64,000 bases of DNA from Acidobacteriota bacterium. GTDB taxonomy: Bacteria > Acidobacteriota > Polarisedimenticolia > J045. The position numbers were made by a program, and so were the translations under genes. The notes under the pieces were generated by a model. That model did no database searches. It was given only the letters and a program-made list of their open reading frames with translations, and was not told where the DNA came from. Location of the stretch: contig JANTFM010000001.1 of NCBI GenBank assembly GCA_024763475.1, positions 7,879 through 71,878 on the forward strand. The letters are read 5' to 3'. Below are positions 1,128-42,227 of this stretch, one piece after another (the stretch's first letter is position 1; every line of letters begins with the position of its first letter).

Positions 1128-2378
1128 CTAGCCTTCCTCCCCTGTGTCGACCCAAGCCAGCAGGCGCCGCTCGCCCTCGAGCGCGCGCAGCCGGGTCAAG
1201 TCCTGGGTCACTTCGAGGCAGCCGAGATAGTCCTTCTGCGGATTGCGTACCGCGAAGTAGCGAATGTGCACGAAGCGAGGACCCATCTGGATCCAGAACT
1301 CCGCCACGTCTTCCTTCTGGCTCCTGAAGTCGGCGAGGATGCGCTCGACGATGTGCACGCTGTGCGGGGGATGGCAGTTGTGCACTTTCCGCCCGATGAT
1401 CGAGTTGGTGCGCGGGAAGACCCGGTCCGGACCTTCCGAAAAGAAGCCCACGCGATCGTCGGCGTCGACGAAGGTCATATCGAAGGGCAGGATGCCGAGG
1501 ATGCTCTTCAGCTGCTCTGGAGTGACCTGTCCCGTGCCCAGCGCCACGGCCGCTGCAGCCGCCGACTCTGCGCTCGGGTCCGGCGTGGCGGGCTCGGCTG
1601 GCGAGTAGCCAAGATTCGGCTTCACCAGGCAATAGCCGTAGCGCTTACCCTCCCGGTAGATAGCCCCCCACTCGTCAGGCTCGAGCAGATCGAGGGCCGC
1701 CGGGAGGAGAATCTTCTCCTCCTTGAAGATCATCTCCAGCATCGCCGCGAGGAGGGGGGTGGCGACGTGCTCTCCGACGAGCTGCCATTCCCCGAGCCCC
1801 GCGCTCTCCTCCGCGAGGGCCTGTCGCAGCGCTCGGAGCATCTCGCGGACGTCATCGTCCTTGGCCCACATCACCTGGGACGGCCCGGCCACGCCGTGCT
1901 GCTCGAGGTGGGGGAAGACGAGGTTCTCCTTGCGGGCGTAGTGCTTCTCGATCTCCAGCAGCTTCTCGGTGCTCTGCCGCCAGCGATCGATCAGGCTCTC
2001 GAGTCCGTCCGTCGATTCCCGTCCGCTGAGCTCATCGAGGAGCTCCTGCATCTCGTCGATCGCGTGAGTGATCGCGGTGTTCTCCCGTCGGAAGGTGTCC
2101 ACCGGGTGTCCCAGAGGGATCGGCGGATCGACGGGTGCGCTGAGCACCTCCCTCACGACCTCGGAGTGCAGGTCGCACATGGCCTTGATCTCGGAGGGAT
2201 CCATGCCCTCCTCAATCAGCTGATGTTCCATGGCGACGATCTCGTCACTTGTCGTCTCGCTCACCAGCGCGCTGAGGCGCGCCTTGACAAATTCCGGGGT
2301 TTCTCCCGTGTGGAGGCCGGTGATGACCTGCTTGAGCTGTTCGATGCGTTTCTGACGGTTGTTGATCAGTTCGGACAT
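1128..2378 (-). CDS. DUF438 family protein (hemerythrin-like cation-binding + PAS-like sensor domains)
   Basis: 416-aa ORF. The N-terminal region (EIVAMEHQLIEEGMDPSEIKAMCDLH), the hemerythrin-like H/E-rich core and the C-terminal PAS-like region match DUF438 architecture. It sits immediately upstream of a DUF1858 gene, a known pairing. Confidence 0.65.
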   Translation of the reverse strand: MSELINNRQKRIEQLKQVITGLHTGETPEFVKARLSALVSETTSDEIVAMEHQLIEEGMDPSEIKAMCDLHSEVVREVLSAPVDPPIPLGHPVDTFRRENTAITHAIDEMQELLDELSGRESTDGLESLIDRWRQSTEKLLEIEKHYARKENLVFPHLEQHGVAGPSQVMWAKDDDVREMLRALRQALAEESAGLGEWQLVGEHVATPLLAAMLEMIFKEEKILLPAALDLLEPDEWGAIYREGKRYGYCLVKPNLGYSPAEPATPDPSAESAAAAAVALGTGQVTPEQLKSILGILPFDMTFVDADDRVGFFSEGPDRVFPRTNSIIGRKVHNCHPPHSVHIVERILADFRSQKEDVAEFWIQMGPRFVHIRYFAVRNPQKDYLGCLEVTQDLTRLRALEGERRLLAWVDTGEEG

Positions 2379-7950: not shown

Positions 7951-8259
7951 CCACCAACGCTGCCGCTCCCCCGGACGCTCGGGGCTGGTAGCAGAGGCTC
8001 GTCAAGAATAACGACAAACTAGGGTCTGAGCAGAGTAATAGTTCGCAATAGCCTGGGACTATCCGGAGTGATTCAGATGTGACTCAAGGACTGGCTTCTT
8101 GTCAATGTACACGTATGATCCCGACTTGCCGTTCCGTCTGTAGGGAACAGATTCCACCACAGGGAAGCAATGGAACACACCGGGAGCTGCTGCGGGGGCG
8201 CTTCGGGCGTGAGATGTCCCGTTCTGTCGTGTTGGACGAGAGAGCGGCCCACGAGGGGT

Positions 8260-20293: not shown

Positions 20294-23200
20294 CCTCGGG
20301 ACACAGGCGCCCGTACAGCGAGGTCCTGGTCATCGGGCTCGATGTCGGGAGCACGACGGTCAAGGCCGTCGTCGTCGAACCCGGCCAACAGGTCGTGATC
20401 TATCGGAACTACCGTCGGCACGAGGCGCGTCAGACCGAGCTATGTCTCGAGTTTCTCGAGCAGATAGAAAAGGAACTCTCGCCCCACGCTGAAGCAGGAT
20501 TCCGGATCGCCGTCACGGGCTCGGGTGGCAACGAGATCGCGGAGCGTCTCGGCGCCCCCTTCGTCCAGGAGGTCAGCGCCATCAGCCTGGCCGTGACGAG
20601 GCTTTATCCCGAGGTTCGGAGTGTCGTCGAACTCGGCGGCCAGGATGCGAAGATCATCATCTTCAAGGAGGACCCGGCGACCGGTCGTAAGAAGACCTAT
20701 CCCTCGATGAATGACAAGTGTGCCGGCGGCACGGGATCGGTGATCGACAGGATCAGTGCCCGGCTGAACGTCCCTCCCGGGGACGTCGCCACCATGCGCT
20801 ACGAGGGCGTGCGTCTGCATCCCGTGGCGGGCAAGTGTGGTGTCTTCGCCGAGACCGACATCAATAGCCTGGTCAAGCAGGGCATCCCCACGGACCAGCT
20901 CGTTGCCTCTCTCTTCGAGAGCATCGTTCAGCAGAATCTTTCGGTTCTGACCCGGGGGCATACGCTGATGCCCCAGGTGCTCCTGCTCGGCGGCCCCAAC
21001 CACTACATTCGCGGGCTCGTCGAGTGTTGGAGGCACAACATCCCCCTGCTCTGGAAGGAGCGAAAGGTCACGCTGCCCGCGGGCCAGAGCATCCGTGAGC
21101 TGATCGTCGTCCCGGAAAACGCCCACTACTTTGCTGCATTGGGCGCCGCAGAGACGGCCGAGGAGGAAGCGAACGATGATCCATCGTTCGGGATCTACCA
21201 CGGGTGTAAGGTGCTGCGCAGCAGCTTGGCGCGGGACGAGGGGGCCGCTCGGCTCAGAACGGGACTGAGCCCTCTCTGCCAGAGTGAGGAAGAGCAGGCC
21301 CGCTTCGAAGAGCAGTATCGCCCGCCGCCATGGGAGCCGGTGCGCTTCGAGGCGGGCACCCGAGTCGAGGCCTACCTCGGCCTCGACGGCGGATCAACGA
21401 GCACCAAGGCCGTACTCCTCGACCCCCGGATGCGGGTTCTCGCCAAGGCCTACCAGCTGAGCCGTGGGAATCCGATTCAGGACGCCAAGGAGATGTTCGC
21501 GTCGCTCGAGTCGCAGATCCTCGAGCAGGACTGCACGCTCGAGATCCTGGGGCTGGGAACGACCGGGTACGCCAAGGACATCCTCAAGGATGTCTTCCGA
21601 GCCGACGTGGCTCTCGTGGAGACCGTGGCCCACACCCAGGCGGGACTGCACTACTTCTCAGGATCGGATGTGATCATCGACGTGGGTGGTCAGGACATTA
21701 AGCTGATCTTCCTCAAGAACGACGCGGTCCACGATTTCAAGTTGAATACCCAGTGCTCGGCGGGAAATGGCTACTTCCTGCAGGGAACCGCCGAGGCCCT
21801 CGGCTTCCGCGTCGAGGACTACGCGGACATCGCCTTCTCAGCCCGTGCGATGCCCGAATTCGGCTACGGGTGTGCGGTGTTCATGCAGACCGACATCGTG
21901 GATTTCCAGCGCCAGGGATGGAGTGCCGAGGAGATCATGGCGGGGCTCGCCGCCGTGCTGCCGAAGAACATCTGGCTCTATGTCGCCAAGATTTCCAACC
22001 TGCCCAAGCTCGGCCGGAAGTTCATCCTGCAGGGTGGGACCCAGCACAATCTCGCTGCGGTCAAGGCTCAGGTCGACTTCATTTCCTCGCGTTTCGTCGG
22101 TTCCGGCGTAGAGCCCGAGGTGATCGTCCATCCGCACTGCGGGGTGTCGGGGGCGATTGGTTGTGCGCTCGAGGTGCACCGTCTTCACGAGGAGCAGGGG
22201 CAGGAGACTCGTTTCATCGGCCTCGCGGCGGCCCAGGACATCGGCTATCACGCGATACGGGGAGAAGAAACCCGCTGCGGCTTCTGCAAGAACAAGTGTC
22301 TGAGGACCTTCATCGATCTCTCGGGCGGGGAACGCATCATCATCGCGACCTGTGAGAAGGGCTCGGTGGAAGAGCTTGCTGACATGAAGCGGATCAAGAA
22401 GGGACTCGATGCCGCGAAGCGGGCCAACCCCAATCTGGCGGAGATCTCGGCCCGTGAGGTGTTTCGTCCCGTAGAGGTTCTCCAGAGTCGTTCTGGCCCC
22501 GTGGAACGACGTCGTGCAGCCCTGCCCTTCGTGAAAGGGAGAGCAGCTCGGCGGGCGGAACGTGTCGAGAGACGTGAGCGTGTGCGGATCGGCATGCCTC
22601 GCGTCATGAATCTTTACTCGATGGCGCCGGTGTTCATGGGCTACTTCCAGAGTCTGGGCGTAGCGGCGGAGAACCTCGTCTGGTCCGACTACAGCTCCGA
22701 GGAGCTCTACCGCGGCGGGGCGAAACGTGGAAGCATCGACCCCTGTTTCCCGAGCAAACTGGGCATTCCCCATCTTCACAACCTGATGGAGAAGAAGCAC
22801 ACGGCGGACAGGCCGCTTTCCCACATCTTCTTCCCGATGATCGACACGCTCCCCACGGTGCTCGTCGGGACGATTGCCAACCGTGCCTGTCCCACCGTCT
22901 GCAACACGCCCGAAGCCGTGGGTGCGGCCTTCATCAAGGAGGGCGATCTCTTCGCGGAACAGGGCATCGTCTTCAAGAAGACCTTCTGCAACATCGACAA
23001 CCCGCTCCTCCTCGCGCGACAGCTCTTTCTCGACTGGAAGGACGAGATCGGCGTCACCGAAGAAGAGTCCCGTTTCGCGGTTCGCCAGGGTCTTGCCGCC
23101 CTCGAGGCCTTCGAGGCGGCGCGGCGCGCTGAGTCCCGCAAGATCATCGATCGTCTTGAGCGGGAGGGCGGCATTGGGCTCGTGCTGCTCGCGAGGCCCT

Positions 23201-23757
23201 ACCACAACGACCCGGGGATCAACCACGAGATCTGCGCCGAATTCCCCAAGCTCGGCTACCCGGTACTGACCCAGTCCAGCCTGCCGCTGGACGAGGACCT
23301 GCTCCTACGCCTTTTTGGCGATGAGATCGACAGGGGCGAGGTGGCGCACCCGATGGATATCGGCGAGGTGTGGAAGAACTCCTACTCGGAGAACTCCTCC
23401 CGCAAGATCTGGGCGGCCCGCTTCGTGGCCCGCCATCCCAACCTCGTCGCCCTTGAGCTGTCCAACTTCAAGTGTGGCCACGATGCGCCGATCTACAGCC
23501 TGGTGGAAGAGATCATCGGCCGCTCAGGAACCCCTTACTTCTCTTTCAAGGACATCGACGAGAACCGTCCCGCCGGATCGATCAAGATCCGCGTCGAGAC
23601 CATCGCCTACTTCCTCGAGCGCTACCACCAGAAACTCAAGCAGGAGCTTGCCACCCGGAGGGCGATCGCCCTTCACCTGGAGAAACTCCAGCGGGAGCTG
23701 CGTGGCGGGGGGCACGGGACGAACGCCAACAGCTCGGGGTTTCCTTCGCGGGGATAG
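20281..23757 (+). CDS. Acyl-CoA dehydratase activase-related protein: two tandem BadF/BadG/BcrA/BcrD-type ATPase (ASKHA) domains + C-terminal HgdB/2-hydroxyglutaryl-CoA dehydratase D-component-like domain
   Basis: Start is at MPEIASGHRRPYSEVLVIGLDVGSTTVKAVVVEP (20281, 13-nt overlap with the upstream gene); the extension from 19927 is rejected. A second activase domain begins at AYLGLDGGSTSTKAVLLDP. The C-terminal part contains the Cys-rich segment IANRACPTVCNTPEA typical of the dehydratase D-component. Confidence 0.65.
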   Translation: MPEIASGHRRPYSEVLVIGLDVGSTTVKAVVVEPGQQVVIYRNYRRHEARQTELCLEFLEQIEKELSPHAEAGFRIAVTGSGGNEIAERLGAPFVQEVSAISLAVTRLYPEVRSVVELGGQDAKIIIFKEDPATGRKKTYPSMNDKCAGGTGSVIDRISARLNVPPGDVATMRYEGVRLHPVAGKCGVFAETDINSLVKQGIPTDQLVASLFESIVQQNLSVLTRGHTLMPQVLLLGGPNHYIRGLVECWRHNIPLLWKERKVTLPAGQSIRELIVVPENAHYFAALGAAETAEEEANDDPSFGIYHGCKVLRSSLARDEGAARLRTGLSPLCQSEEEQARFEEQYRPPPWEPVRFEAGTRVEAYLGLDGGSTSTKAVLLDPRMRVLAKAYQLSRGNPIQDAKEMFASLESQILEQDCTLEILGLGTTGYAKDILKDVFRADVALVETVAHTQAGLHYFSGSDVIIDVGGQDIKLIFLKNDAVHDFKLNTQCSAGNGYFLQGTAEALGFRVEDYADIAFSARAMPEFGYGCAVFMQTDIVDFQRQGWSAEEIMAGLAAVLPKNIWLYVAKISNLPKLGRKFILQGGTQHNLAAVKAQVDFISSRFVGSGVEPEVIVHPHCGVSGAIGCALEVHRLHEEQGQETRFIGLAAAQDIGYHAIRGEETRCGFCKNKCLRTFIDLSGGERIIIATCEKGSVEELADMKRIKKGLDAAKRANPNLAEISAREVFRPVEVLQSRSGPVERRRAALPFVKGRAARRAERVERRERVRIGMPRVMNLYSMAPVFMGYFQSLGVAAENLVWSDYSSEELYRGGAKRGSIDPCFPSKLGIPHLHNLMEKKHTADRPLSHIFFPMIDTLPTVLVGTIANRACPTVCNTPEAVGAAFIKEGDLFAEQGIVFKKTFCNIDNPLLLARQLFLDWKDEIGVTEEESRFAVRQGLAALEAFEAARRAESRKIIDRLEREGGIGLVLLARPYHNDPGINHEICAEFPKLGYPVLTQSSLPLDEDLLLRLFGDEIDRGEVAHPMDIGEVWKNSYSENSSRKIWAARFVARHPNLVALELSNFKCGHDAPIYSLVEEIIGRSGTPYFSFKDIDENRPAGSIKIRVETIAYFLERYHQKLKQELATRRAIALHLEKLQRELRGGGHGTNANSSGFPSRG

Positions 23758-30462: not shown

Positions 30463-31122
30463 ATGGAACCCGAAAAGCGATTTTTCTTTCCCCGTTGGTT
30501 TAACCTCCTGCTGCCTGCTCTGGGCGTCGTGCTTGTGGGTGGACCGCTCTACCTCATCGTCGTGGTCTGGCTCGGATTCTCTCCGATGGCGGTTAGCGTC
30601 GGGTATGCTCCCGAGCAGCCCGTTCCCTATTCCCACGCCCTCCACGCGGGAGAACTGGGGATCGACTGCCTCTACTGTCACAACACGGTCGAGGAAAGCG
30701 GAAGAGCTGCGATACCTCCGTCTGCGACCTGCATGAACTGTCACGAGCGGATCAAGGCGAAGAGTGAGGCGCTTGCGCCGATCAGGGAGAGCATGGAGAC
30801 TGGCGAGCCAGTCAAGTGGGTGAGGGTGCACGACTTGCCGGACTTCGTCTACTTCAACCACAGCGCTCATGTCTCGCGAGGTGTGGGCTGCGTCGAGTGT
30901 CATGGCCGGGTGGATCGCATGGAGGTCGTCACCCAAGTCAAGCCCCTGAGCATGGGATGGTGCCTTGCTTGCCATCGCGATCCCGACGCCCGGCTTCGGC
31001 CCTTGGATCGGATCACCGATCTCGGCTGGGAGCCGGATGGAGATCGACTCGAGATCGGTCGTAAGGTACGAGAAGAAAACAACATCCAACCCTCCACGGA
31101 CTGTTCCACATGTCATCGATGA
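30463..31122 (+). CDS. actA: Alternative complex III subunit ActA, membrane-anchored pentaheme cytochrome c
   Basis: There are five CxxCH motifs (CLYCH, CMNCH, CVECH, CLACH, CSTCH). An N-terminal TM helix is present. It is first in an act operon. Confidence 0.8.
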   Translation: MEPEKRFFFPRWFNLLLPALGVVLVGGPLYLIVVVWLGFSPMAVSVGYAPEQPVPYSHALHAGELGIDCLYCHNTVEESGRAAIPPSATCMNCHERIKAKSEALAPIRESMETGEPVKWVRVHDLPDFVYFNHSAHVSRGVGCVECHGRVDRMEVVTQVKPLSMGWCLACHRDPDARLRPLDRITDLGWEPDGDRLEIGRKVREENNIQPSTDCSTCHR

Positions 31123-34100
31123 AAAAGCCTGTATCGGGAAAGGCGTTCTGGCGTTCCCTCGAGGACTACGCCGAGGCCCCGGAGTTCATGCGCTGGGCCA
31201 AGGCGGAGTTTCCTGCTCTGCTTGAGCCGATGAGTCCCCCGTCGCGCCGGTCCTTCCTGCGCCTGATGGGAGCCTCGGCGGCTCTCGCGGGGCTGGCGGC
31301 TTGCCGTTGGCCCAAGGAGACCATTCTCCCGTTCTCCCAGCGGCCGGAAGACCTCGTCCCCGGGGTTCCCCAGCGCTTCGCCACGGCCTTCGATTACGGT
31401 GGCCACGCCCAGGGACTGCTCGTCACGAGCTACGACGGCCGCCCGATCAAGATCGAGGGCAACCCGGAGCATCCCCTGTCGCGGGGGGCCAGCAACTCCT
31501 TCGCCCAGGCGTCGGTGCTGAGCCTCTACGACCCGGATCGCTCACGGGTCCCCTATTCCGGGGGCAAGAAGAGTTCTTGGGCGGACTTCGATGCCGCGTT
31601 CGGCGCGCAGACAACGGCTCTTGCCGCGTCCGGTGGAGCGGGTTTCGCCGTGCTGGCCGAGGCGAGTTCGTCGCCCAGCCGCGCGCGCTTGCAGGCTGAG
31701 ATAGAGTCCGCCTGGCCCAACGCCCGCTGGTTCGAGTACGAAGCGATCTCCCGGGACAACGAGCGGGAGGGTACGCGGCTCGCCTTCGGGAAGCCCCTGC
31801 GGCCCCAGTACGACTTCTCCAAAGCCGAGCTTGCCGTCTGCCTCGATGCCGACCTCCTGGGAGAGCATCCGGCGTCCCTCGCCCATGCCCGGGGCTTCGC
31901 GGTGTCCCGGCGCCGGATCGACGAGGGCCGACTCGGTCGCCTCTACGCGATCGAGAGCTGCTATTCGATCACCGGAGCCGCAGCCGACGAGCGTTTCCCG
32001 ATGCCCAGCGGCCGGATTCCCGCACTCCTCGTTGCCATCGCTCAAGGCCTCGAGGCGGCTGGAGTTGCCCTGCCCTCGGGTGTGCTCCGCGCCGCCGTGT
32101 CCGCATTTCCGCCTGGCGAGAGCCTGCCCCTCGTGGCCACGATCATCGAGGATCTGCTGCGCCATCGCGGCCACGGCTTCGTGGCCGTTGGTGCCCAGCA
32201 CCTGGCGGAAGCCCACGCTCTGGCGTTCGCCATCAACGATGCCCTCGCGAACACGGGCCATACGGTCTCTTACCTTCCCTGTCCTGATCCGGAACGGGTG
32301 TCTCACTCGACCGCGATTGCCAGCCTGGCAAGGAAGATCGAGGCGGGAGAGCTCACCACGCTCCTCGTTCTCGGTGCGAACCCGGTCTACAACGCCCCTG
32401 CGGACTTCGATTTCGGTGCTTTGCTGGCCAAGGTCGGCCAGACGATTCATCTCGGGCAGTACCGCGATGAGACCGCCGAGAAGTGCCTCTGGCACCTCCC
32501 CGAAGCGCACTATCTCGAATCCTGGGGTGATGCCCGCTCCTGGGATGGAAGCGTCAGCGTCGTCCAGCCGCTGATCGAGCCCTTGCACGGATCGCGCAGC
32601 GCCCTCGAGATCCTCGCCGGTGTTCTCGGTCGCCAGCCGGCGGACGGACATGGGATCGTCCGAGAGACGATCACCGGACTCGCTGGCGACAAGGGAGACA
32701 AGGCGTGGCGCCGCACCTTGCATGACGGTCTGCTTGCCGGCAGTGCGCCTGCGCCCGTCCATCCCCGGATCGATGGCTCATCGGTCGCCGCGTCCCTGGC
32801 TTCGGCGAAGCCCAAGGCTGCTGGTGATCTGGAACTCGTCTTCACCACGGCTCCGGACGTCTACGACGGACGCTTCGCGAACAACGCCTGGTTACAGGAG
32901 ACGCCCGATCCGCTGACGAAACTCACCTGGGACAACGCACTGCTCGTGGGACCCGCCACGGCGGACAAGCTGGGTGTGCGCCATGGCGAGCTGGCGAAGG
33001 TGGAGGCTGGCGGCCGCTCGATCGAGGCCCCGGTGTTCATCGCTCCGGGCCAGGCCCTCGGGTCGATTGCCCTCGGCCTCGGTTACGGCCGGACCGCGGC
33101 CGGCAGGGTCGGCAGCGGCGTGGGTATCAGCGCCTACCCCCTGAGAACTCTCGCGGACGCCGGTTGGTCCAGCGGCATCACGGTGACAGGCACCGGACAG
33201 GTCTTCAAGTTGGCGACGACCCAGGATCATTTCGCGATCGATGTGGGGGGCCGCGAGGAGACGGAGCGCCGCCGACCCGAGCTCGTGCGCGAGGCGAATC
33301 TCGAGGAGTTCAAGCGGGTCCCCGACTTCGTTCGCCACCGCAGCCACGACATAGAGCTCTTTTCCCTCTGGGAGGAGTTCACCTACGAAGGTCACAGCTG
33401 GGGCATGTCGATCGACCTGAACACCTGCATCGGCTGCAACTACTGCGCGGTGGCCTGTCAAGCCGAGAACAATGTCCCGGTCGTCGGCAAGGAGCAGGTG
33501 TACAACGGCCGCGAGATGGCCTGGCTGCGCGTGGATCGCTACTACGGGGGGGATCCTGAGGATGCAAGCATCGCGTTCCAGCCCCTCGCCTGTCAGCAGT
33601 GCGAGATGGCGCCCTGCGAAGAGGTCTGCCCGGCATCAGCGACCGTTCATGACGACGAAGGCCTCAATACGATGGTCTACAACCGCTGTATCGGGACGCG
33701 CTACTGTTCCAACAACTGCCCTTACAAGGTGCGTCGTTTCAACTTCTTCAACTACCACAAGAATCTGACGGAACTCGAGTCGCTGGGGATGAATCCCGGT
33801 GTCTCCGTTCGATCGCGTGGTGTGATGGAAAAGTGTACCTACTGCACGCAGCGCATCGCCCAGGTAAAGATCCTGGCCAAGAACGAGGGGCGTCCCATCG
33901 AGGACGGCGAGATCACGCCCGCCTGCGCCCAGGCCTGTCCGACGCAGGCCATCACCTTCGGCGACCTCAACGATGAGAAGAGTCGCGTCCGCGAGCTGCA
34001 CCAGGACAAGCGGGCCTACTCGCTCCTGGGCGAACTGAACATCAAGCCGCGCACGAAATATCTGGGGCGGATAAAGAACCCATCCTCCATGGGACACACG

Positions 34101-34127
34101 GAGCACAGCTCCGAGGAGCATCACTGA
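31110..34127 (+). CDS. actB: Alternative complex III subunit ActB (fused B1 molybdopterin-oxidoreductase-like + B2 4Fe-4S ferredoxin-like), Tat signal
   Basis: The twin-arginine signal is SRRSFLRLMGASAALAGLAA. There are four Cys clusters: CIGCNYCAVACQAEN, CQQCEMAPCEEVCP, CIGTRYCSNNCPY and CTYCTQRI...CAQACP. 1005 aa, the expected ActB size. Confidence 0.85.
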   Translation: MSSMKKPVSGKAFWRSLEDYAEAPEFMRWAKAEFPALLEPMSPPSRRSFLRLMGASAALAGLAACRWPKETILPFSQRPEDLVPGVPQRFATAFDYGGHAQGLLVTSYDGRPIKIEGNPEHPLSRGASNSFAQASVLSLYDPDRSRVPYSGGKKSSWADFDAAFGAQTTALAASGGAGFAVLAEASSSPSRARLQAEIESAWPNARWFEYEAISRDNEREGTRLAFGKPLRPQYDFSKAELAVCLDADLLGEHPASLAHARGFAVSRRRIDEGRLGRLYAIESCYSITGAAADERFPMPSGRIPALLVAIAQGLEAAGVALPSGVLRAAVSAFPPGESLPLVATIIEDLLRHRGHGFVAVGAQHLAEAHALAFAINDALANTGHTVSYLPCPDPERVSHSTAIASLARKIEAGELTTLLVLGANPVYNAPADFDFGALLAKVGQTIHLGQYRDETAEKCLWHLPEAHYLESWGDARSWDGSVSVVQPLIEPLHGSRSALEILAGVLGRQPADGHGIVRETITGLAGDKGDKAWRRTLHDGLLAGSAPAPVHPRIDGSSVAASLASAKPKAAGDLELVFTTAPDVYDGRFANNAWLQETPDPLTKLTWDNALLVGPATADKLGVRHGELAKVEAGGRSIEAPVFIAPGQALGSIALGLGYGRTAAGRVGSGVGISAYPLRTLADAGWSSGITVTGTGQVFKLATTQDHFAIDVGGREETERRRPELVREANLEEFKRVPDFVRHRSHDIELFSLWEEFTYEGHSWGMSIDLNTCIGCNYCAVACQAENNVPVVGKEQVYNGREMAWLRVDRYYGGDPEDASIAFQPLACQQCEMAPCEEVCPASATVHDDEGLNTMVYNRCIGTRYCSNNCPYKVRRFNFFNYHKNLTELESLGMNPGVSVRSRGVMEKCTYCTQRIAQVKILAKNEGRPIEDGEITPACAQACPTQAITFGDLNDEKSRVRELHQDKRAYSLLGELNIKPRTKYLGRIKNPSSMGHTEHSSEEHH

Positions 34128-34130
34128 TCC

Positions 34131-35597
34131 ATGAGCACAGGACTATCTGAAAACCTGAGCCAGGATCCACGGCAGCGGCCCACGCTGGTGCTGGGGGGCA
34201 AGGGCTTCACCGAGGTGACGGACACGGTCTGTGCCGTGTCCGAGCGGCGCAAGTGGCCGGCGATCTGGTATATCGCTTTCGCCTGTTCCCTGGTTCTCCT
34301 GGGCGTGCTTGGCGCCTGCCTGACCTACCTGATCAGCACGGGTATCGGGGTGTGGGGCAACAACATGCCCGCTGCCTGGGGATTCCCGATCGTCAACTTC
34401 GTGTTCTGGGTCGGCATCGGACACGCAGGTACGCTGATCTCGGCGGTGCTCTTCCTCTTTCGCCAGAAATGGCGGACGAGTATCAACCGCTCCGCGGAGG
34501 CGATGACGATCTTCGCAGTGGCCTGTGCCGGCATCTTCCCGGCGGTGCATGTCGGGAGGGTCTGGCTGGCCTACTGGCTCTTTCCCATTCCCAACCAAAT
34601 GTCCATGTGGCCGAATTTCCGTTCGCCGCTGCTCTGGGACGTATTCGCCGTGAGCACCTACGCCACCGTGTCCAGCATGTTCTGGTACATGGGTATGATC
34701 CCGGATCTGGCGACCCTTCGAGACAGGGCGACTGGCAAGGCGAAGCAGTTCTTCTACGGCCTCTTTTCCCTGGGTTGGTCCGGGTCCAATCGCCACTGGC
34801 TTCGTTTCGAGCGGGCCTACTTGCTGCTTGCGGCGCTCGCGACCCCGCTGGTGCTCAGCGTGCACTCGATCGTGTCCTTCGACTTCGCGGTCTCGATCCT
34901 GCCGGGCTGGCACACGACGATCTTTCCGCCCTACTTCGTCGCTGGGGCGATCTTCAGCGGGTTCGGGATGGTGATGACGATTCTCATTCCCTGCCGTTCG
35001 GCCTTCGGGCTGCAAGATCTGATCACGACGCGCCACGTAGAGAACATGGCCAAGGTGATCCTCGTGACCGGCTCGATGGTGGGCTACTCCTATACGATGG
35101 AGTTCTTCATCGCCTGGTACAGCGGCAACCTGGTTGAGCAGTTCGCCTTCGTCAACCGCTCCTTCGGACCCTACGCTTGGGCCTACTGGACCATGTTCAG
35201 CTGCAACGCCTTCATTCCTCAGCTCTTCTGGTTCAAGAAGGTCCGCCAGACGATGCTTCTCGCCTGGATTGTCAGCATTCTCGTCAACGTGGGGATGTGG
35301 TTCGAGCGATTCGTGATCGTCGTCACCTCGCTGACGCGGGACTACCTCCCCTCGAGTTGGGGCATGTTTCGGCCGACCTCTATCGACTTTCTGACCTTCC
35401 TCGGCAGCTTCGGTTTGTTCTTCACGCTCTTCCTGCTCTTCGTTCGTTTCCTGCCGATGGTCGCGATGGCCGAGGTGCGGAGCGTGATGCCGCAGGCCCA
35501 TGGCATCGTCGGTGAAGGACACCGTCCCTTCGGTGACTACTGGCCCGACTCTGTTCATCCGGAGCGGCAGCGAAAGCCGTCGCCGGAGGAAGAGTGA
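34131..35597 (+). CDS. actC: Alternative complex III subunit ActC (NrfD/PsrC-like polytopic quinol-interacting membrane subunit)
   Basis: 488 aa with ~10 TM helices. NrfD-family motifs include [25 protein letters not shown]. Position in operon also fits. Confidence 0.8.
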
Positions 35598-36142
35598 TGA
35601 ACCACGACACGGCGCCCCTGTGGGGCATGATGGCCGAATTCGACAACGTCAGCGATACCCTCGCCGCCGCGGAGAAGACCCGCGACGCCGGCTTCAAGCA
35701 CTGGGACACGCACACTCCCTTCCCAGTGCACGGGCTGTGTGATGCGATGGGCATGCGGGATACGCGTCTGCCATGGGTCGTGCTCACGGCAGGAATCACC
35801 GGGGCCCTCTTCGGCCTGGCGCTGCAATACTTCACCAATGCCGTGGACTATCCGTTCGTGATCAGCGGCAAGCCGTTGTTCAGCCTGCCTGCGAATATTC
35901 CGGTGGTCTTCGAGTGCACGATCCTCTTCGCCGCGCTGACGGCCTTCAAGGCCATGCTCGTGGCGAATCGTCTGCCGCAGCATCATCGGCCACTCTTCAA
36001 GAAGGAGCGCTTCCGGCGGGCCACGCAGGACCGCTTCTTCATCGTGATCGAGGCGGCGGATCCCAAGTTTGATGCGGACAGGACGCGCGCCTTTCTCGAG
36101 TCGCTTGGCGGGCTCTCCGTTGAGGAGGTAGAGGATCGATGA
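35594..36142 (+). CDS. actD: Alternative complex III subunit ActD (DUF3341 membrane protein)
   Basis: 182 aa with a single TM segment; ATGA-coupled to actC. Size and position fit ActD. Confidence 0.65.
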
Positions 36143-36792
36143 GGGTACCGAGGGGAGTCATCTACCTGCTCATTGTGGCGGTTGCGCTGACGCTGCTACC
36201 GCTGGCAGTGATCGCACTGGCGCGCACCTCGACGTCGTCCAAGCCGCGGATTCACATCGTTCCCGACATGGATAGCCAGGAGTCCTTCAAGGCGCAACAG
36301 GGTTCCACGCTCTTCAGCGACGGCCGTGCGGCGCGCCTGGCGCCGGCCGGAACGGTCGCCCGAGGCCAGCTCAAAGAGGACGACCACTACTATCGGGGCA
36401 AGATCGCAGACGCGTATGCGACCGAGTTCCCCAAGCAGGTTCAGGTCACGGAAGAACTCCTCCTGCGGGGCAAGAACCGATTCCAGGTATTCTGCGCCCC
36501 TTGCCACGGTCGTGCCGGCTACGGAGACGGTATGGTGGCCCGGCATGCGGACGCACTGGCCGAGGGCACCTGGACCCAGCCAGCGGACTTCCACACGGAC
36601 GCCATCCGGCAGCGGCCGGTCGGCGAGATCTTTGATATCTTGACCAACGGGGTACGCAACATGCCGGCCCATGGTCGCCAGATCAAAGTACATGATCGCT
36701 GGGCGATCGTGGCTTACGCCAAGGCGCTGCAACTCAGCCAGGAGGTCGACGTTGAATCCCTCCCGGCCGAGTTCCGCCAAGGCCTGCGCTAA
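36139..36792 (+). CDS. actE: Alternative complex III subunit ActE, monoheme cytochrome c
   Basis: There is a single CAPCH heme-binding motif and an N-terminal signal/lipobox-like segment. ATGA-coupled to actD. Confidence 0.75.
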   Translation: MRVPRGVIYLLIVAVALTLLPLAVIALARTSTSSKPRIHIVPDMDSQESFKAQQGSTLFSDGRAARLAPAGTVARGQLKEDDHYYRGKIADAYATEFPKQVQVTEELLLRGKNRFQVFCAPCHGRAGYGDGMVARHADALAEGTWTQPADFHTDAIRQRPVGEIFDILTNGVRNMPAHGRQIKVHDRWAIVAYAKALQLSQEVDVESLPAEFRQGLR

Positions 36793-36798
36793 GCGAGG

Positions 36799-38022
36799 TT
36801 GGGGATGCATACCCATCTGATCGATATCACGAAGGAAAAACGCTTTCTGGGTTCTCTTGGGCAGCGGTTGACTCTCGGGGGTGGTGTGGCCGGTATCGTG
36901 GGCCTGGCCGTGTCCTTCGGCCTGGCATCGACCTCTGAAGACGGTATTCATCGTCTGTGGTGGTCCTACCTCCACAACTGGACCTTCTTCCTGACGATTG
37001 CTCTCGGCGCACTCTTCTTCGTGCTGGTCGAGCACCTGGCCAAGGCGGGTTGGAGCGTTGTTCTAAGGAGGCTCTCCGAGGGCGTCTCGATGACGCTCGT
37101 CTTGCTGGCGATCCTCTTCGTGCCGCTGATTTTCGGCCTGCATGACCTGTATCACTGGCTGCACGCGGATCTCGTGGCCCAGGACCATGTGCTACAGCAC
37201 AAGGCGTCCTACCTGAACCAGACCTTCTTCCTGGTCCGCGTCGCGGTCTACTTCCTCTTCTGGATCGGGGCGGCGTTCCTGATGCACCGCAACTCGGTCA
37301 AGCAGGACCAGAGCGGCGATCACTTGCTGACGGGGAAGATGGAAGCCCTCAGCGCGCCTTTCATGATGATCTTTGCACTGACGACGACCTTCGCATCCTT
37401 CGACCTGCTGATGTCCCTCGATCCGCACTGGTTCTCGACGATCTTTGGCGTCTATTTCTTTGCCGGGTCCTTCATGTCTTTCCTGGCCTTCCTGTCCGTG
37501 ATCATCGTCGGCTTGCAGCGAAGTGGCCGGTTGACGGGTGCCATCACCGACCAGCACCTGCATGATGTCGGAAAGTTCCTGTTCGCGATGCTCGTCTTCT
37601 GGGCTTACATCGCGTTCTCACAGTACCTGCTGATCTGGTATGGCAACCTTCCAGAAGAGACCGGATGGTACCTGCGGCGGCAGACGGGGACTTGGTCCAG
37701 CCTCGGGATCGTGATGATCTTCGGGCACTTCCTGATCCCCTTTCTGTTCTTGCTCTCGCGGCACATCAAGCGGCGGCCTCTGCTGCTCTCCCTGGGCGCG
37801 TTGTGGCTGCTGGTGATGCACTGGCTCGATCTTTATTGGTTGATCATGCCCGAGTATGACCACGCTCTCACCGCGATCCCGTTCAGCCTGCTAGACCTGA
37901 GTTGCCTGGTGGGTATCGGGGGCTTCTTCATCGCCGCCTGGGCGTGGTTCCTCAGGCGTTGCTCGTTGATCGCCGAGAAAGACCCGCGTCTCGCGGAATC
38001 GCTCACCTTTGAGAACGCGTGA
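36799..38022 (+). CDS. actF: Alternative complex III subunit ActF (second NrfD-like membrane subunit)
   Basis: 407 aa polytopic membrane protein paralogous to ActC (WYGNLPEETGWY). Operon position fits. Confidence 0.75.
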   Translation: MGMHTHLIDITKEKRFLGSLGQRLTLGGGVAGIVGLAVSFGLASTSEDGIHRLWWSYLHNWTFFLTIALGALFFVLVEHLAKAGWSVVLRRLSEGVSMTLVLLAILFVPLIFGLHDLYHWLHADLVAQDHVLQHKASYLNQTFFLVRVAVYFLFWIGAAFLMHRNSVKQDQSGDHLLTGKMEALSAPFMMIFALTTTFASFDLLMSLDPHWFSTIFGVYFFAGSFMSFLAFLSVIIVGLQRSGRLTGAITDQHLHDVGKFLFAMLVFWAYIAFSQYLLIWYGNLPEETGWYLRRQTGTWSSLGIVMIFGHFLIPFLFLLSRHIKRRPLLLSLGALWLLVMHWLDLYWLIMPEYDHALTAIPFSLLDLSCLVGIGGFFIAAWAWFLRRCSLIAEKDPRLAESLTFENA

Positions 38023-38044: not shown

Positions 38045-38365
38045 ATGGAACAGGAATCTGGCAAGGGCAAGCCCGATACAGGCTACAGGGGCATGACCGT
38101 GGTTCTCGTGGTCGTACTGACACTCGTGCTGGCGACTGCGCTATCGCTCTCCGGCATCGCCTACCTGAACCACCTCTCCTCCCTGCAGCTCAAGGAGCAG
38201 CTCGTCGAGGTCAAGAACCAGGCGTTGGAGGAGATGGTGACCGCTCAGGAGCGGGCTCTTTCTCGCCGGGAGTGGGTTGATCAGGAGAAGGGTAAGGCGC
38301 GCATACCCATCGAGGATGCCATGAAGGTCATGGCGCGCGGCTTCGCTGAGAAGGACGGACGCTAA
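38045..38365 (+). CDS. Small single-TM membrane protein, probable ActG-like accessory subunit
   Basis: The ATG at 38045 is preceded by GGAGAGG. It has a TM helix (TVVLVVVLTLVLATALSLSGIAYL) followed by a charged coiled region. It is located between actF and the cox-like genes. Start is uncertain; the alternative is 38093. Confidence 0.45.
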   Translation: MEQESGKGKPDTGYRGMTVVLVVVLTLVLATALSLSGIAYLNHLSSLQLKEQLVEVKNQALEEMVTAQERALSRREWVDQEKGKARIPIEDAMKVMARGFAEKDGR

Positions 38366-38367
38366 TC

Positions 38368-39363
38368 ATGAATCCTGCACCCTCGTGGATGCCCCCCCAG
38401 GCCGCGGATATCGCGAAGAGCGTGGATTGGAGCTTCGAGGTCACGCTGTTTATCGCACTCTTCCTTGCGGTGACGGTGGTCGGTCTGCTTGCGCTCTTTG
38501 TCTCGACCAGCCGTCCCCAGGACAAGCAGTCGGCTGGGCGTGACGGTGCGGGCTGGGTGGTCCAGGCTTTCTGGGTCCTGGCCCCGCTGTTGATTTGCGG
38601 CTATCTGTTCACGCTGGGTCTTCCGGGCTATGTGTCCAATACGCGCCAGAGAAGCGAATCGTACACGGTGGTCGCTGCGGTCCAGCCCTGGACGGCGGAC
38701 GAGTCCAAGGAGCGGTCCGAGGGTGAGCTTCCGATCGCCGATTGGTCGTTTACCTACCCCAACGGTTTCGTCGCTCGGGACCTGCGCTTGCCAGCGCATA
38801 AGAAGATTCATCTCGTGGTTCAGGGCAGCCAAGGCGCTCAGACACTCTACGCGCCGGCCCTGCGCATCGAGGGCAAGGCCGCCTTCGGAGAAAAAGAGGA
38901 TTTTTGGTTCGAGACCTCGGATCCGGGAAGCTACCCGCTTTTCAACACGGTCTATAGCGGGGGCGAGTTCCTGGGCATGGGTGCCGAACTCATGATCAGC
39001 GACGCGGCGGAGTTCGACACCTGGCTCCAGGAAGTCTCGAACGATCTCTCGGGGCTTCCGCCCGCCGAGGCCGGCCAGGTCGTCTTCCAGCGCAACGGAT
39101 GTGTGGCTTGCCATTCGATCAACGGAACGCCGCTGGTCGGGCCGAGCTTCCAGGGATTGTGGGGCCGGTCCGAGACGCTTGCCGATGGAAGCAGCGTCGT
39201 CGTGGATGCGGACTATGTCGCGGAGTCGATCTTCAATCCGACAGCTAAAGTGGTCAAGGGCTTCCAGCCCGTGATGCCCCCGTTCGCCGGGCGCATTTCC
39301 GACGAGCACGTCGGCTTCCTCATCGAGTACATGAAGTCCCTGAACGGGGAGGGTGCCAAATGA
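38368..39363 (+). CDS. Heme-copper oxidase subunit II-like protein lacking the CuA ligands, with a C-terminal monoheme cytochrome c domain (caa3-type architecture, degenerate)
   Basis: Two N-terminal TM helices plus a cupredoxin-like periplasmic domain are typical of CoxB. The CuA motif H-x34-CxExCGxxHxxM is absent: the corresponding region reads LYAPALRIEGKAAFGEKEDFWFETSDPGSYPLFNTVYSGGEFLGMGAELM with no Cys or His. The C-terminal heme c site is CVACH, with a downstream Met. Confidence 0.6.
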   Translation: MNPAPSWMPPQAADIAKSVDWSFEVTLFIALFLAVTVVGLLALFVSTSRPQDKQSAGRDGAGWVVQAFWVLAPLLICGYLFTLGLPGYVSNTRQRSESYTVVAAVQPWTADESKERSEGELPIADWSFTYPNGFVARDLRLPAHKKIHLVVQGSQGAQTLYAPALRIEGKAAFGEKEDFWFETSDPGSYPLFNTVYSGGEFLGMGAELMISDAAEFDTWLQEVSNDLSGLPPAEAGQVVFQRNGCVACHSINGTPLVGPSFQGLWGRSETLADGSSVVVDADYVAESIFNPTAKVVKGFQPVMPPFAGRISDEHVGFLIEYMKSLNGEGAK

Positions 39364-40928
39364 GCGCCACGCATGCAGCTGCTGCCCCATCCGGCACCCA
39401 GGGGAGCTGGCTCTTCAGCCTGGATCACCGCCGCATCGGCGTCCTCTACCTGTGGGTCTCCTGTTTCGCAATCCTCGTGGCCGCCTTCCTCGGCTGGTTG
39501 ACGGCCGTGGAGACGGCCTATCCAGGGCAGACCTTCGTTGGTGAGCAGGACCTCCACCTGCTCGGTGCCGGCCGGGGCCTCTTCCTTGTGTTTTTCTTCC
39601 TGCTGCCGGCCATCCCGGCTGGTCTCGGCAATTTCATTCTGCCGCTGCAGGTCGGCGCAGAGAATGTCTTCCATCCGTCGATGAATCGCCTGGCGCTTCA
39701 TACCTTCCTGCTGGGCCTTCTCGCCGCCGTGGTGGCGGCGTTACTCGGTGGAGCGGATGCGTGGTGGGCCCCGCTGACGCCCTATGACTTGGGGCCCGGT
39801 GCGGTCGTGACCTGGTCGATGGCCGCCGCCGCACTCGTCGTATTCTCGATGATGATGACCAGTCTCAATTTCATCGGGACGGTTCATCTGCGCCGGGCTC
39901 CCGGTATGAGCCTGTCCCGGCTCCCGGTGAGTGTCTGGGCGATCTACATCTACTCCTGGGTTCACATCGTGGCTGCGCCGGCGGCGACTCTCGCCTATGG
40001 CGCGATGTTGATGAGTCGCGGCAAGGAGATGCCCTTCACCAATCCCGAGACGGGTTTCGCCTTCTCGCAGATCGAGATGCTCTTCTGGTTCTTCGCGGCT
40101 CCCGTGCTCCTGGCCACGATCCTGCCCGTGATCGGCGTCGTGACGGAGGTCCTTTCGGCGCAGACCCGCCGACGGCCTGCGGCGCCAGGACTCCTGGTCT
40201 ACGCGATGGCCGCAATCGGCGTCATGTCCTTCATGGTGTGGGGACGGGAACTTTTCTCGATCGGCGCGCATGAACGACTGGCGATCGTCGGCAGTGTTGC
40301 GTCCTTCCTGGTCTACGCCCTCGTCTTGACGATCATCTTCGCCTGGATCGGCACCCTGTCCCAGCGTGGCAGTGGTTTCCAAGTGGATGCTGCCTTGCTC
40401 TACGCGGTCTTCGCGATCGCTTTCCTCGCGATCGGCGCTCTTGCCGGTTGTTTTACGGCCTCCATGGCCCTCGGCCCTTACCTCGGCCCGTCGCTCTTTG
40501 CCTCCGGCCGCTTCGAACTCCTCGTGGTGAGCCCGGTGGTCATGGGGCTTCTGGCGGGGCTGCACTACTGGTGGCCCAAGCTCAGGGGGTGCAGCTGCCG
40601 GGGCACGGCCGCGAGCCTGGGAGCTTGGGCGGTCTTCCTGGGATTGCTTCTCTCCGGACTGGGCAAGCTGGCGCTGGGCATCATGGGTGTTCCTGCGCGA
40701 GCGTATTCCGCAGGTGGGCCTCACCTGGCCGCTTACCTTGCGGAGCTGGGGGCGACCCTCGTGCTCTGCGGTCTCTTCGTAGTGGTGACGGTGCTTGCGC
40801 GCGCCGAGAAGGGAAGCGACGAGGGGATCGAGGGCGCGGGCCTCGAATGGCAGGCCGGCTCCTTCAACGACGCCGAGAACTTCTCGACAGTTCCGGATGG
40901 CCACATCGACCCCTACGACTTCCGCTGA
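39360..40928 (+). CDS. Heme-copper oxidase subunit I-like protein with all canonical CuB/heme a3/heme a His ligands substituted (pseudo-oxidase subunit I)
   Basis: The N-terminus WLFSLDHRRIGVLYL matches COX1 (WLFSTNHKDIGTLY), and HYWWPK matches HYWFPK. However FWFFGHPEVY is replaced by FWFFAAPVLL, WAHHMF by WGRELF, and the HDTYYVVAHFHY region by ASGRFELLVVSP. 522 aa with ~12 TM helices. Confidence 0.6.
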   Translation: MSATHAAAAPSGTQGSWLFSLDHRRIGVLYLWVSCFAILVAAFLGWLTAVETAYPGQTFVGEQDLHLLGAGRGLFLVFFFLLPAIPAGLGNFILPLQVGAENVFHPSMNRLALHTFLLGLLAAVVAALLGGADAWWAPLTPYDLGPGAVVTWSMAAAALVVFSMMMTSLNFIGTVHLRRAPGMSLSRLPVSVWAIYIYSWVHIVAAPAATLAYGAMLMSRGKEMPFTNPETGFAFSQIEMLFWFFAAPVLLATILPVIGVVTEVLSAQTRRRPAAPGLLVYAMAAIGVMSFMVWGRELFSIGAHERLAIVGSVASFLVYALVLTIIFAWIGTLSQRGSGFQVDAALLYAVFAIAFLAIGALAGCFTASMALGPYLGPSLFASGRFELLVVSPVVMGLLAGLHYWWPKLRGCSCRGTAASLGAWAVFLGLLLSGLGKLALGIMGVPARAYSAGGPHLAAYLAELGATLVLCGLFVVVTVLARAEKGSDEGIEGAGLEWQAGSFNDAENFSTVPDGHIDPYDFR

Positions 40929-40934
40929 GCCCGA

Positions 40935-41482
40935 TGGTTGACCGGGAGACATCGAATCCCGTTCGGGCGGCCATCTCCCACTGGACGGAGCCTGTCTTCG
41001 GGCTCGCGGGTCTCGCGCTTGTCGCGGTGGTGCTGCTATTCATCGTCAGAGGTTGGGTCCCCAGGGAGCGGCCTCATCCGGGGTCCCCAGAGATCGGAAG
41101 ACTCGCCGTCCTGCCCTTCGATGAGATCGGTGACGAAGCTGCCGCCGCCCCAGACAGCGGGTCAATCCTGGAGGCGCTGACCAGCGAGTTCTCCCACTAC
41201 CTGGCCGTGATCCCGTCCGAGCAGAGCCAGCTCCAGGGGCGGAGCAAAAAGACCCTGCGGGAGATTGCGGAAGACCTCGGCGCCGACTCGCTCCTGGTGG
41301 GTAGCATCATCGCCGGAGACAGCGGCACCCGCGTGCGCGCACGCCTCGTGCGAGCCGAGCAGAGCCGCGAGCTGTTTGCCGTCCGTGTGCTCGGAGAGGA
41401 TCCTGCGCGCCTCGCGGCGCAAATGCGGACGACGATTCTTGGGGAAGATGCGCCGCGAAGGACGGCTGAAGAGACGCGGTGA
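40935..41482 (+). CDS. Hypothetical membrane-anchored protein (N-terminal TM helix; periplasmic/cytoplasmic alpha/beta domain)
   Basis: ATG at 40935. A TM segment (FGLAGLALVAVVLLFIV) is followed by a ~140-aa soluble region. No family recognised. Confidence 0.4.
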
Positions 41483-41567: not shown

Positions 41568-42227
41568 ATGCAGTCGCCGCAAGAGGTCCTGAAGCGCCTC
41601 CAGGCAGGAAATCGTCGCTTCGTTTCGGAGCGTCCTACTTGCGCCATCCTCAGCACTGAGGCGCGCCGCCGCGAGCTACTGGAGGGCCAGGAGCCCTGCG
41701 CCATCATCCTCGGTTGTTCCGATTCGCGGGTTCCGCCGGAGATCGTCTTCGATCAGGGCCTGGGCGACCTCTTCGTCATTCGTGTCGCGGGGAACACCGC
41801 CGGCCCATCTCAAGTCAGTAGCATCGAGTTCGCCGTGAAGAAGCTCGGTGCGCGGCTCGTCGTGGTTCTGGGTCACTCGAGCTGTGGTGCCGTGCTCGCG
41901 GCCCTGGAGGATCTCGAACTCCCGCCTCGGCACCGGTCTCCGAGCCTCGCGCCGATCGTTGCTTCGTTCGAAGACTCGGTGAAATCCTTGCCAGAGACGG
42001 AGCGTCTGCAGGACTCGGCCACGCTGGTGCGCTACGCCGTTCGGGAGAATATCCGGAGGGTAGTGGATCAGCTGCGAAGCGACTTTGGGGTTTTCGGGCG
42101 ACAGGTCCGGCGAGACGAACTCCTCATCGTCGGAGCGGAGTATTCGCTCGAGACCGGATGCGTAGATTTCTTCGATGATCCGGTGCAGCCGACCGGAACC
42201 GAAGTCGCTCGTCCCCAGGATCCATGA
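41568..42227 (+). CDS. Beta-class carbonic anhydrase
   Basis: Zn-ligand motifs are CSDSRV and HSSCGAV, with the N-terminal LKRLQAGNRRF motif. Start is at MQSPQEV (41568); the alternative ATG is at 41532. Confidence 0.85.
   Translation: MQSPQEVLKRLQAGNRRFVSERPTCAILSTEARRRELLEGQEPCAIILGCSDSRVPPEIVFDQGLGDLFVIRVAGNTAGPSQVSSIEFAVKKLGARLVVVLGHSSCGAVLAALEDLELPPRHRSPSLAPIVASFEDSVKSLPETERLQDSATLVRYAVRENIRRVVDQLRSDFGVFGRQVRRDELLIVGAEYSLETGCVDFFDDPVQPTGTEVARPQDP

Follow-up and report, generated by a model that had tools for sequence, protein, structure and literature searches.

Heme-copper oxidases (HCOs) are defined by six His ligands. In the caa3-type enzymes of Rhodothermus marinus and Thermus thermophilus, subunit II (subunit IIc; 1W2L and 2YEV_B) consists of a transmembrane hairpin, a cupredoxin domain with the CuA site and its bridging Glu, and a class I cytochrome c domain, and it is paired with a cofactored subunit I. 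In R. marinus, the ActE subunit of alternative complex III (ACIII) donates directly to subunit IIc's cytochrome c domain, which is the electron entry point of the oxidase (PMC5928083), and an ACIII-A2 caa3 superoperon has been described for Acidobacteria (PMC8407424). Here we report on a stretch of 64,000 nucleotides from an Acidobacteriota bacterium (hereafter the window; assembly GCA_024763475.1, contig JANTFM010000001.1, positions 7,879 to 71,878 of the forward strand; all coordinates below are window positions), in which a gene for a CoxB-like protein (38368..39363, +; 331 aa) and a gene for a COX1-like protein (39360..40928, +; 522 aa) sit at the tail of an intact actABCDEF operon. The CoxB-like protein shares the three-part layout of caa3 subunit II, whereas the pair is without CuA, the bridging Glu and a cofactored subunit I. 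It is a subunit I/II pair without any Cu or non-covalent heme ligand set (only the CuA Met is kept), yet it is held under strong purifying selection in an intact ACIII operon.

Loci for comparison were collected by scanning one genome per GTDB species, which yielded 80. Nearly all of these encode ActA to ActF, a small protein, SCO1, CoxB, CoxA and COX3, often with CtaA further on; in 69 of the 80 the CuA site of CoxB is fully canonical, and the COX1 of these loci has all six His and the A2 motif YSHPAVY. The placement of coxB and coxA straight after actABCDEF and the small gene, on the same strand, is common to about 70 loci and the window, and the position directly before cox1 is likewise that of the gene in the acidobacterial superoperon. 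The difference lies in three genes that ACIII-A2 caa3 loci carry (CtaA often) and the window operon does not: searches with phmmer and tblastn found SCO1 (copper chaperone), COX3 (subunit III) and CtaA (heme A synthase) neither in the operon nor in the whole of the window. They were lost together with the ligands, which is a coordinated loss of cofactors. Most likely, the pair is what remains, stripped of its redox sites, of an A2-type caa3 oxidase with which an ancestral ACIII-caa3 superoperon ended.

Ligand loss in the CoxB-like and COX1-like proteins

The open reading frame (ORF) of the CoxB-like protein begins with an ATG 2 nt past the stop of the small upstream gene, and its TGA stop overlaps the ATG of the COX1-like gene (ATGA). 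It was assigned through its family matches, alignment, an AlphaFold2 (AF2) model and Foldseek. NCBIfam places it closest to TIGR02866 (CoxB), for which it reaches 48.9 bits where the cut-off is 147.7; PF02790 (COX2_TM) matches weakly (18.2 against 22.8), PF00116 gave no match in the Pfam search, and with the CyoA and QoxA models, whose cut-offs are 241-511, it scores 15-20 bits, so that all subunit II models stay under their curated thresholds. PF00034 is above its cut-off (28.5 against 21.3), as is PF13442. Among PDB sequences, the protein matches Thermus caa3 subunit II (2YEV_B) over its whole length, its C-terminal 100 residues match the R. marinus caa3 cytochrome c domain (1W2L; E-value 3e-23), and its cupredoxin domain also resembles Escherichia coli CyoA (E-value about 3e-5).

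The AF2 model, built from a 65-sequence alignment, has a mean predicted local distance difference test score (pLDDT) of 84.4 and shows two transmembrane helices, a sandwich of the cupredoxin type and, at residues 232-328, a cytochrome c domain made of helices. Its top Foldseek match is 2YEV_B, aa3 subunit II chains are also among the top matches, and 1W2L superposes on it with a Foldseek TM-score of 0.93 and a root-mean-square deviation of 1.3 Å. On these grounds we delimit a transmembrane hairpin (helices at residues 14-47 and 63-92; 38407..38643, +) from the AF2 secondary structure and the weak PF02790 match, a cupredoxin domain (residues 96-222; 38653..39033, +) from the AF2 beta-sandwich at 99-211 and the CyoA/CoxB cupredoxin matches, and a class I cytochrome c domain (residues 228-328; 39049..39351, +) from PF00034, PF13442 and 1W2L. 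The protein is a caa3-type HCO subunit II homologue: all significant matches of the cupredoxin domain are HCO subunit II, and no NosZ-like or nitrosocyanin-like family appears among the Pfam, NCBIfam and PDB sequence hits or the listed top 50 Foldseek matches. Membership in such a cupredoxin family, which the first-pass annotation of this sequence had named as one finding that would refute its reading, can therefore be set aside. One feature of the domain is foreign to caa3 subunit II, namely a 16-residue acidic/basic insert (TADESKERSEGELPIA, residues about 109-124, window 38692-38739), which is specific to this lineage and missing from all other relatives; AF2 renders it as a short helix of low confidence.

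CuA positions were read from an alignment of 82 ACIII-linked CoxB proteins, in which the ligand columns H, C, C, H and M are conserved in 70-72. The CoxB-like protein has Q158, N193, S197, F201 and M204 at these columns and V195 in place of the bridging Glu, so that four of the five side-chain ligands are replaced and M204 is the sole one kept. The former CuA loop (NTVYSGGEFLGM, residues 193-204; 38944..38979, +) aligns without gaps to the canonical C-x-E-x-C-x3-H-x2-M; the AF2 pLDDT falls below 50 at its residues 197-199. The first-pass annotation was thus right that both Cys (now N193 and S197) and both His (Q158 and F201) of CuA are gone and wrong that the Met is gone too, for M204 aligns ungapped to the CuA Met. 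It had also allowed for a mis-read motif and for alternative Cys/His/Met constellations. A CuA motif is not hidden elsewhere in the protein, and a substitute metal site in the cupredoxin domain is ruled out, since the domain has no Cys at all and, of its two His, H144 is Tyr in the closest relative (92% identical).

The heme c site, which had been reported as intact from its CVACH motif, is complete: C245, C248 and H249 (CVACH, nt 39100-39114) are joined by the axial M303 (nt 39274-39276). CxxCH and the axial Met are invariant in every CoxB relative examined. The CoxB-like protein is accordingly predicted from these residues to be unable to hold CuA but able to hold heme c.

The COX1-like protein has 12 transmembrane helices and was characterised by PF00115 (201.6 bits), alignment, AF2 with Foldseek, and the ratio of nonsynonymous to synonymous substitution rates (dN/dS). 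TIGR02891 scores 264 bits against a cut-off of 671. The AF2 model (pLDDT 83.4, predicted TM-score 0.88) reproduces the 12 helices and matches A-family subunit I with a Foldseek TM-score of about 0.9. Functional positions were read by alignment to yeast COX1 and canonical ACIII-linked COX1 proteins. The six His ligand positions are occupied by R72, A247, R296, E297, R384 and E386. Leu stands in place of the cross-link Tyr, FAAPVLL in place of the A2-type motif YSHPAVY, Asn in place of the D-channel Asp and Ile in place of the K-channel Lys. That subunit I is without its ligands had been suspected beforehand and is correct for all six His; by its residues the protein would no longer bind heme a, heme a3 or CuB. 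A salt bridge between R72 and E386 was considered as a conserved replacement for the heme ligands and dropped, as position 72 is Gln in the 95%-identical protein of another assembly (L002). Because the CoxB-like protein is without CuA and the COX1-like protein without ligands, the canonical path from heme c through CuA to heme a cannot exist, which agrees with the truncated electron path proposed in the first-pass annotation.

Selection on the pair and constraint on its domains

Apart from the window contig, the lineage turned up in no more than two assemblies, both from Logan (L083 and L002). The CoxB-like sequence of L002, from another sequencing run, is 92% identical and has the same CuA substitutions, and the COX1-like protein was found identically in L083; the pair is not an assembly error. 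Nothing above 37% identity was found among GTDB species genomes, and JGI metagenomes held no close relative. A word-index search of 5.8 billion proteins returned only the 92%-identical relative for the CoxB-like query and only its own cluster for the COX1-like query. An exhaustive HMMER search of 1.84 billion cluster representatives, run with the COX1-like query only, returned nothing above 35% identity outside that cluster.

dN/dS was computed against L002 (92% amino acid identity for the CoxB-like and 95% for the COX1-like protein) at a dS of about 0.33. It is 0.105 for the whole CoxB-like gene (0.126 for the transmembrane part, 0.087 for the cupredoxin and 0.111 for the cytochrome c domain), 0.079 for the COX1-like gene and 0.185 for the small 106-aa gene upstream. 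Both proteins are under strong purifying selection and are not relics. That the genes are decaying pseudogenes, or a sequencing or assembly artefact without function, might be argued from scores far under the curated family cut-offs and from a rare lineage with three assemblies only. The ORFs are, however, intact, overlapping and of equal length across independent assemblies, both AF2 models are confident, and a dN/dS of 0.08-0.13 at a dS of 0.33 in effect refutes the argument, as values of about 0.1 are not those of pseudogenes. We give it next to no chance of being right.

Conservation is uneven along the pair. In the cytochrome c domain, mean identity is 0.47 between the window and canonical proteins and 0.54 when canonical proteins are compared with one another; the two values are 0.28 and 0.52 in the cupredoxin domain, 0.23 and 0.40 in the transmembrane hairpin, and 0.29 and 0.66 in COX1. 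By this comparison the heme c domain has kept its ancestral constraint, and all other parts have moved to a new, still constrained sequence.

These figures bear on the possibility that the pair is a purely structural, supernumerary module that stabilises or assembles ACIII or a supercomplex, with a heme c that lies off the main path and is redox-silent or buffering. For such a module speaks the strong purifying selection, which extends to every part, even to the cofactor-less cupredoxin domain and to COX1, and ActE already gives ACIII an exit heme. A structural role is harder to square with a heme c domain that alone is near-canonical in conservation, and six divergent lineages, all degenerate, have CxxCH and the axial Met unchanged (below), which is hard to explain without a redox role. 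We regard a structural module as unlikely, though the most serious of the alternatives considered here.

Ligand-losing pairs in other lineages

CuA-less CoxB-like proteins occupy the same operon position in nine Planctomycetota genomes (loci L001/L025, L030, L040, L042, L045, L051, L053, L068 and L074), where NCBI labels them only 'c-type cytochrome' (for example MBK7878314.1 and MBK7644974.1, which lie between ACIII and cbb3 genes). The clusters consist of ActABC, a fused ActD-ActE, ActF, the small gene, the CuA-less CoxB-like gene with intact heme c, and a COX1-like gene; as in the window, SCO1 and COX3 are absent near the pair. In 9/9 loci the pair is followed by DsbD_2, CcoI, CcoNO, CcoP and CcoG, with CcoS in L001 only, and in the seven loci where CcoP was checked it has 211-227 aa, a single CxxCH and so one heme. 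This arrangement suggests a three-part unit of ACIII, pseudo-oxidase and cbb3. The Planctomycetota proteins differ from the window protein, to which they are about 35% identical, in the fusion of ActD with ActE and in the cbb3 cluster that follows, which the window does not have. In their COX1-like protein both His of the low-spin heme remain, as do two of the three for CuB, and the heme a3 His is lost, whereas the window protein has none of these ligands.

Among the best 149 cluster representatives (P0243-P0391) of the HMMER search with the COX1-like query, about 60 have non-canonical six-His/Tyr patterns, a count in which alignment errors are possible for the column calls of the most divergent representatives. 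They point to altered A-family subunit I proteins of large diversity that have apparently gone undescribed, and to judge from the exhaustive protein search, metagenomes contain many relatives that are partly degenerate. Seven non-canonical variants were looked up at the level of the locus. All four that have enough upstream sequence (L084, L086/L087, L089 and L091) sit behind ACIII and a CoxB in which CuA is partly or completely lost. No ACIII was seen with the other three: the contigs of L088 and L092 (2.6-4.7 kb) are too short to tell, and L090 lies in a different context. ACIII-linked pairs that are losing ligands, partially or completely, thus occur in at least five lineages besides the window, and the window pair shows the most complete such loss seen in this comparison.

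Since about 60 of the best 149 representatives have altered ligand sets and may be active enzymes, and since gNOR shows that one active-site His is replaceable (PMC11214002), the window pair could conceivably still be catalytic through unconventional ligands or cofactors, such as an Arg/Glu metal site or a heme on non-His ligands. The extent of the replacement argues otherwise: all six His have gone, and with them the cross-link Tyr, the YS motif and the proton-channel residues (D-channel Asp, K-channel Lys), the cupredoxin domain is without Cys, SCO1 and CtaA have left the operon, and the change of R72 to Gln in the 95%-identical relative means that a new site would not be conserved. We consider catalysis of this kind very improbable.

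Among the six degenerate lineages, identity is 25-36%, and to canonical oxidases it is 27-43%; CxxCH and the axial Met are kept in all six. Because the lineages stand no farther from canonical oxidases than from one another, and in part nearer, the identities point to several independent degenerations. In neighbour-joining bootstraps the window lineage is sister to the Planctomycetota clade in 84-90%, while its raw distances and pairwise identities are no closer to that clade than to canonical oxidases. As these distances are equal and the Act subunits of the window look acidobacterial, the grouping may be long-branch attraction.

Two further loci are recorded here as observations. A Fibrobacteraceae metagenome-assembled genome (L032, about 9809-12427) holds an intermediate-looking pair with Tyr at the first CuA His, Gln at one CuB His and the K-channel Lys lost, the other ligands being present; SCO1 and COX3 were not detected there. 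In L084 (Logan SRR31272973, 2896-5504) the COX1 pattern is R,Y,F,Q,E,H,Q and the CoxB keeps C..C without both His and the Met. This pair adjoins carotenoid/bacteriochlorophyll-type genes (SQS_PSY, CrtC, PucC and Mg-chelatase), and its host is probably a phototroph.

A proposed role in ACIII electron transfer

The ACIII genes upstream of the pair were assigned as follows. ActA (30463..31122, +), the pentaheme cytochrome c, has five CxxCH motifs, matches Cytochrome_C7/c3 and QrcA-like models and has an ActA homologue in about 60 loci. ActB (31110..34127, +), the molybdopterin-like and Fe-S subunit with a twin-arginine translocation (Tat) signal, is matched by NCBIfam QrcC, QrcB and DsrO-like models and by TIGR04519, and its best matches among the fetched loci are from Acidobacteriota. 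ActC (34131..35597, +) is the NrfD-like, quinol-binding membrane subunit (PF03916 NrfD, 74.8 bits; synteny), ActD (35594..36142, +) matches PF11821 with 225 bits, and ActE (36139..36792, +) is a monoheme cytochrome c with a single CAPCH motif (PF13442, 42.7 bits). ActF (36799..38022, +), a second NrfD-like membrane subunit, is without a Pfam hit and is homologous to the ActF-position gene in all ACIII loci. A small protein of 106 aa with a single transmembrane helix (38045..38365, +) follows, and was also called as a 106-aa gene in L002 and L083; no family matched it in Pfam or NCBIfam, and it was placed in the ActG position by gene order, its homologues coming after ActF in many canonical and degenerate loci. 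From actA to the cox1-like gene all genes are tightly packed on the same strand with overlapping or adjacent start and stop codons, and the Act subunits score best against Acidobacteriota loci. A promoter scan found none, and terminator-like sites occur at chance level.

We favour, at about an even chance, the reading that the pair is a non-catalytic oxidase remnant kept as the membrane-tethered cytochrome c of ACIII, and that the gene for its acceptor lies elsewhere. Of the redox cofactor sites, the pair retains only the c-type heme of the CoxB-like protein, whose heme c entry domain is kept with no cofactor site behind it. The 12-helix COX1-like protein, together with the transmembrane hairpin and cupredoxin domain of the CoxB-like protein, would act as membrane anchor or scaffold, and the heme c domain would be a tethered monoheme cytochrome c. 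Menaquinol would be oxidised at ActC, and electrons would run via the Fe-S clusters of ActB and along the ActA heme wire and ActE to the heme c of the CoxB-like protein, from which they would leave for a terminal oxidase or reductase encoded elsewhere in the genome. For the window we infer each of three elements of this scheme: that the pair is physically associated with ACIII, which way the electrons flow, and what the acceptor is.

The position of the pair at the tail of the ACIII operon makes ActA/ActE the likely electron source, and a relay to a different acceptor is for this reason the better of the two options that the first-pass annotation had left side by side. Operon position, conservation of the heme c domain, selection, recurrence and the adjacency of cbb3 in relatives all speak for a relay, and nothing was found for a sink. 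The analogous modules of Planctomycetota probably have as acceptor the cbb3 oxidase whose genes lie directly downstream. More than one acceptor is served by ACIII hemes (PMC8552683). ACIII of Flavobacterium johnsoniae has exit hemes with some redundancy among them, and its ActE is believed to serve further acceptors (PMC8552683).

The direction of flow could also be the reverse, with the tethered heme c taking electrons from a periplasmic donor and passing them into the ActA/ActB wire, ACIII then running backwards as a quinone reductase, or to partners linked to ActE. The ACIII heme wire is branched and its direction is set by potentials (PMC5928083), the sequence does not fix it, and no terminal oxidase lies nearby. 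Genes for an Fe(II), sulfur or nitrite oxidation donor system are, however, absent from the 64 kb window, the ancestral role of the heme c domain was to accept from ActE (PMC5928083), and the neighbour in Planctomycetota is an oxidase, that is, an acceptor. Electron entry at this heme we rate as quite improbable.

Several observations weigh against a tethered cytochrome c as well. A search of the window for an acceptor (cbb3, other redox enzymes, an oxidase, a reductase or a soluble carrier) found none. ActE can already reduce soluble carriers, and an extra tethered heme c may be redundant. The one ACIII-oxidase supercomplex resolved to high resolution, that of F. johnsoniae, makes its contact via subunit III, as summarised in PMC8361435, and subunit III (COX3) is missing from the window operon. 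The AF2 alignments are dominated by canonical oxidases, so that a retained fold is partly built into the models. A dN/dS of 0.08 on a 522-aa protein with 12 transmembrane helices seems to exceed what a passive anchor would need, and the COX1-like protein likely has a role beyond anchoring.

A wider proposal, which we hold tentatively and at somewhat less than even probability, is that ACIII-linked caa3 oxidases of at least six lineages repeatedly became 'pseudo-oxidase' modules, poor in cofactors or free of them, that stay under selection within the ACIII machinery. The heme c would be the electron outlet, and the dead subunit I would have gained a new non-redox role, for example as a docking platform to another oxidase such as cbb3. 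A 2024 survey of the superfamily found the active-site His conserved in all HCO families except gNOR, the first with one His replaced (PMC11214002). If the repeated conversion is true, the modules would form an undescribed class of respiratory pseudoenzymes and an exception to the rule of active-site His conservation.

Precedents exist for parts of this arrangement. E. coli CyoA, Bacillus subtilis QoxA and gNOR subunit II likewise have a cupredoxin fold without CuA ligands (for gNOR, PMC11214002), but they have no cytochrome c domain, and their partner subunit I is fully cofactored and takes electrons from quinol. Canonical ACIII-linked CoxB proteins are the likeness on the side of the heme, their heme c domain being on average 47% identical to that of the CoxB-like protein. 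The proposed working would resemble that of cytochrome c_y in the bc1-cbb3 supercomplex of Rhodobacter capsulatus (6XKX/6XKZ; listed as a precedent in PMC8361435), in which a monoheme class I domain held at the membrane connects a quinol:cytochrome c oxidoreductase with a terminal oxidase. Homology to cytochrome c_y is limited to the cytochrome c fold, and its anchor is a single helix and linker, unlike that of the CoxB-like protein, which would be a whole dead-oxidase core (2 + 12 transmembrane helices and a cupredoxin domain); shuttling by the latter is putative.

In the literature searched as full text, with incomplete coverage of subscription papers, we found neither a CuA-less CoxB with a cytochrome c domain nor a ligand-less COX1 next to ACIII. 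A CuA-less subunit II is already known from quinol oxidases and gNOR, and the search suggests that its combination with a cytochrome c domain and a ligand-less subunit I behind ACIII is a variant unreported in the literature found. For genome annotation, counting 'COX1/COX2 next to ACIII' as aerobic respiration over-calls oxygen reduction in genomes of this kind. The pair is also a natural experiment in the use of an oxidase scaffold without its chemistry, and it offers a testable route for ACIII electrons to partners other than caa3, such as cbb3.

Downstream genes and the rest of the window

Downstream of the COX1-like gene lies a gene for a 182-aa protein with one transmembrane helix and a soluble domain (40934..41482, +), which is conserved in L002 and L083. 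It matched no significant Pfam family, is not COX3-like, and is a possible member of the ACIII/pseudo-oxidase system. A beta-carbonic anhydrase gene (window 41568-42227) lies 3' of it, and both genes are found 3' of the COX1-like gene in all three assemblies of the lineage.

The rest of the 64 kb window holds polysaccharide-synthesis and unrelated genes, and a further respiratory enzyme was not found among them. At 1128-2378 (-), distant from the ACIII operon, a protein with DUF438, hemerythrin and PAS_10 domains is possibly an O2, NO or iron sensor. A 2389-aa protein with PKD, He_PIG, Big_9, MG2 and DUF2341 repeats (8170-15339, +) is probably a giant surface or adhesin protein and adjoins a region of polysaccharide-export and glycosyltransferase genes. 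Finally, a 1276-aa fusion of a BadF/BcrA-type ATPase with DUF2229, of the CoA-enzyme activase type (19927-23757, +), hints at an anaerobic radical-enzyme activator.

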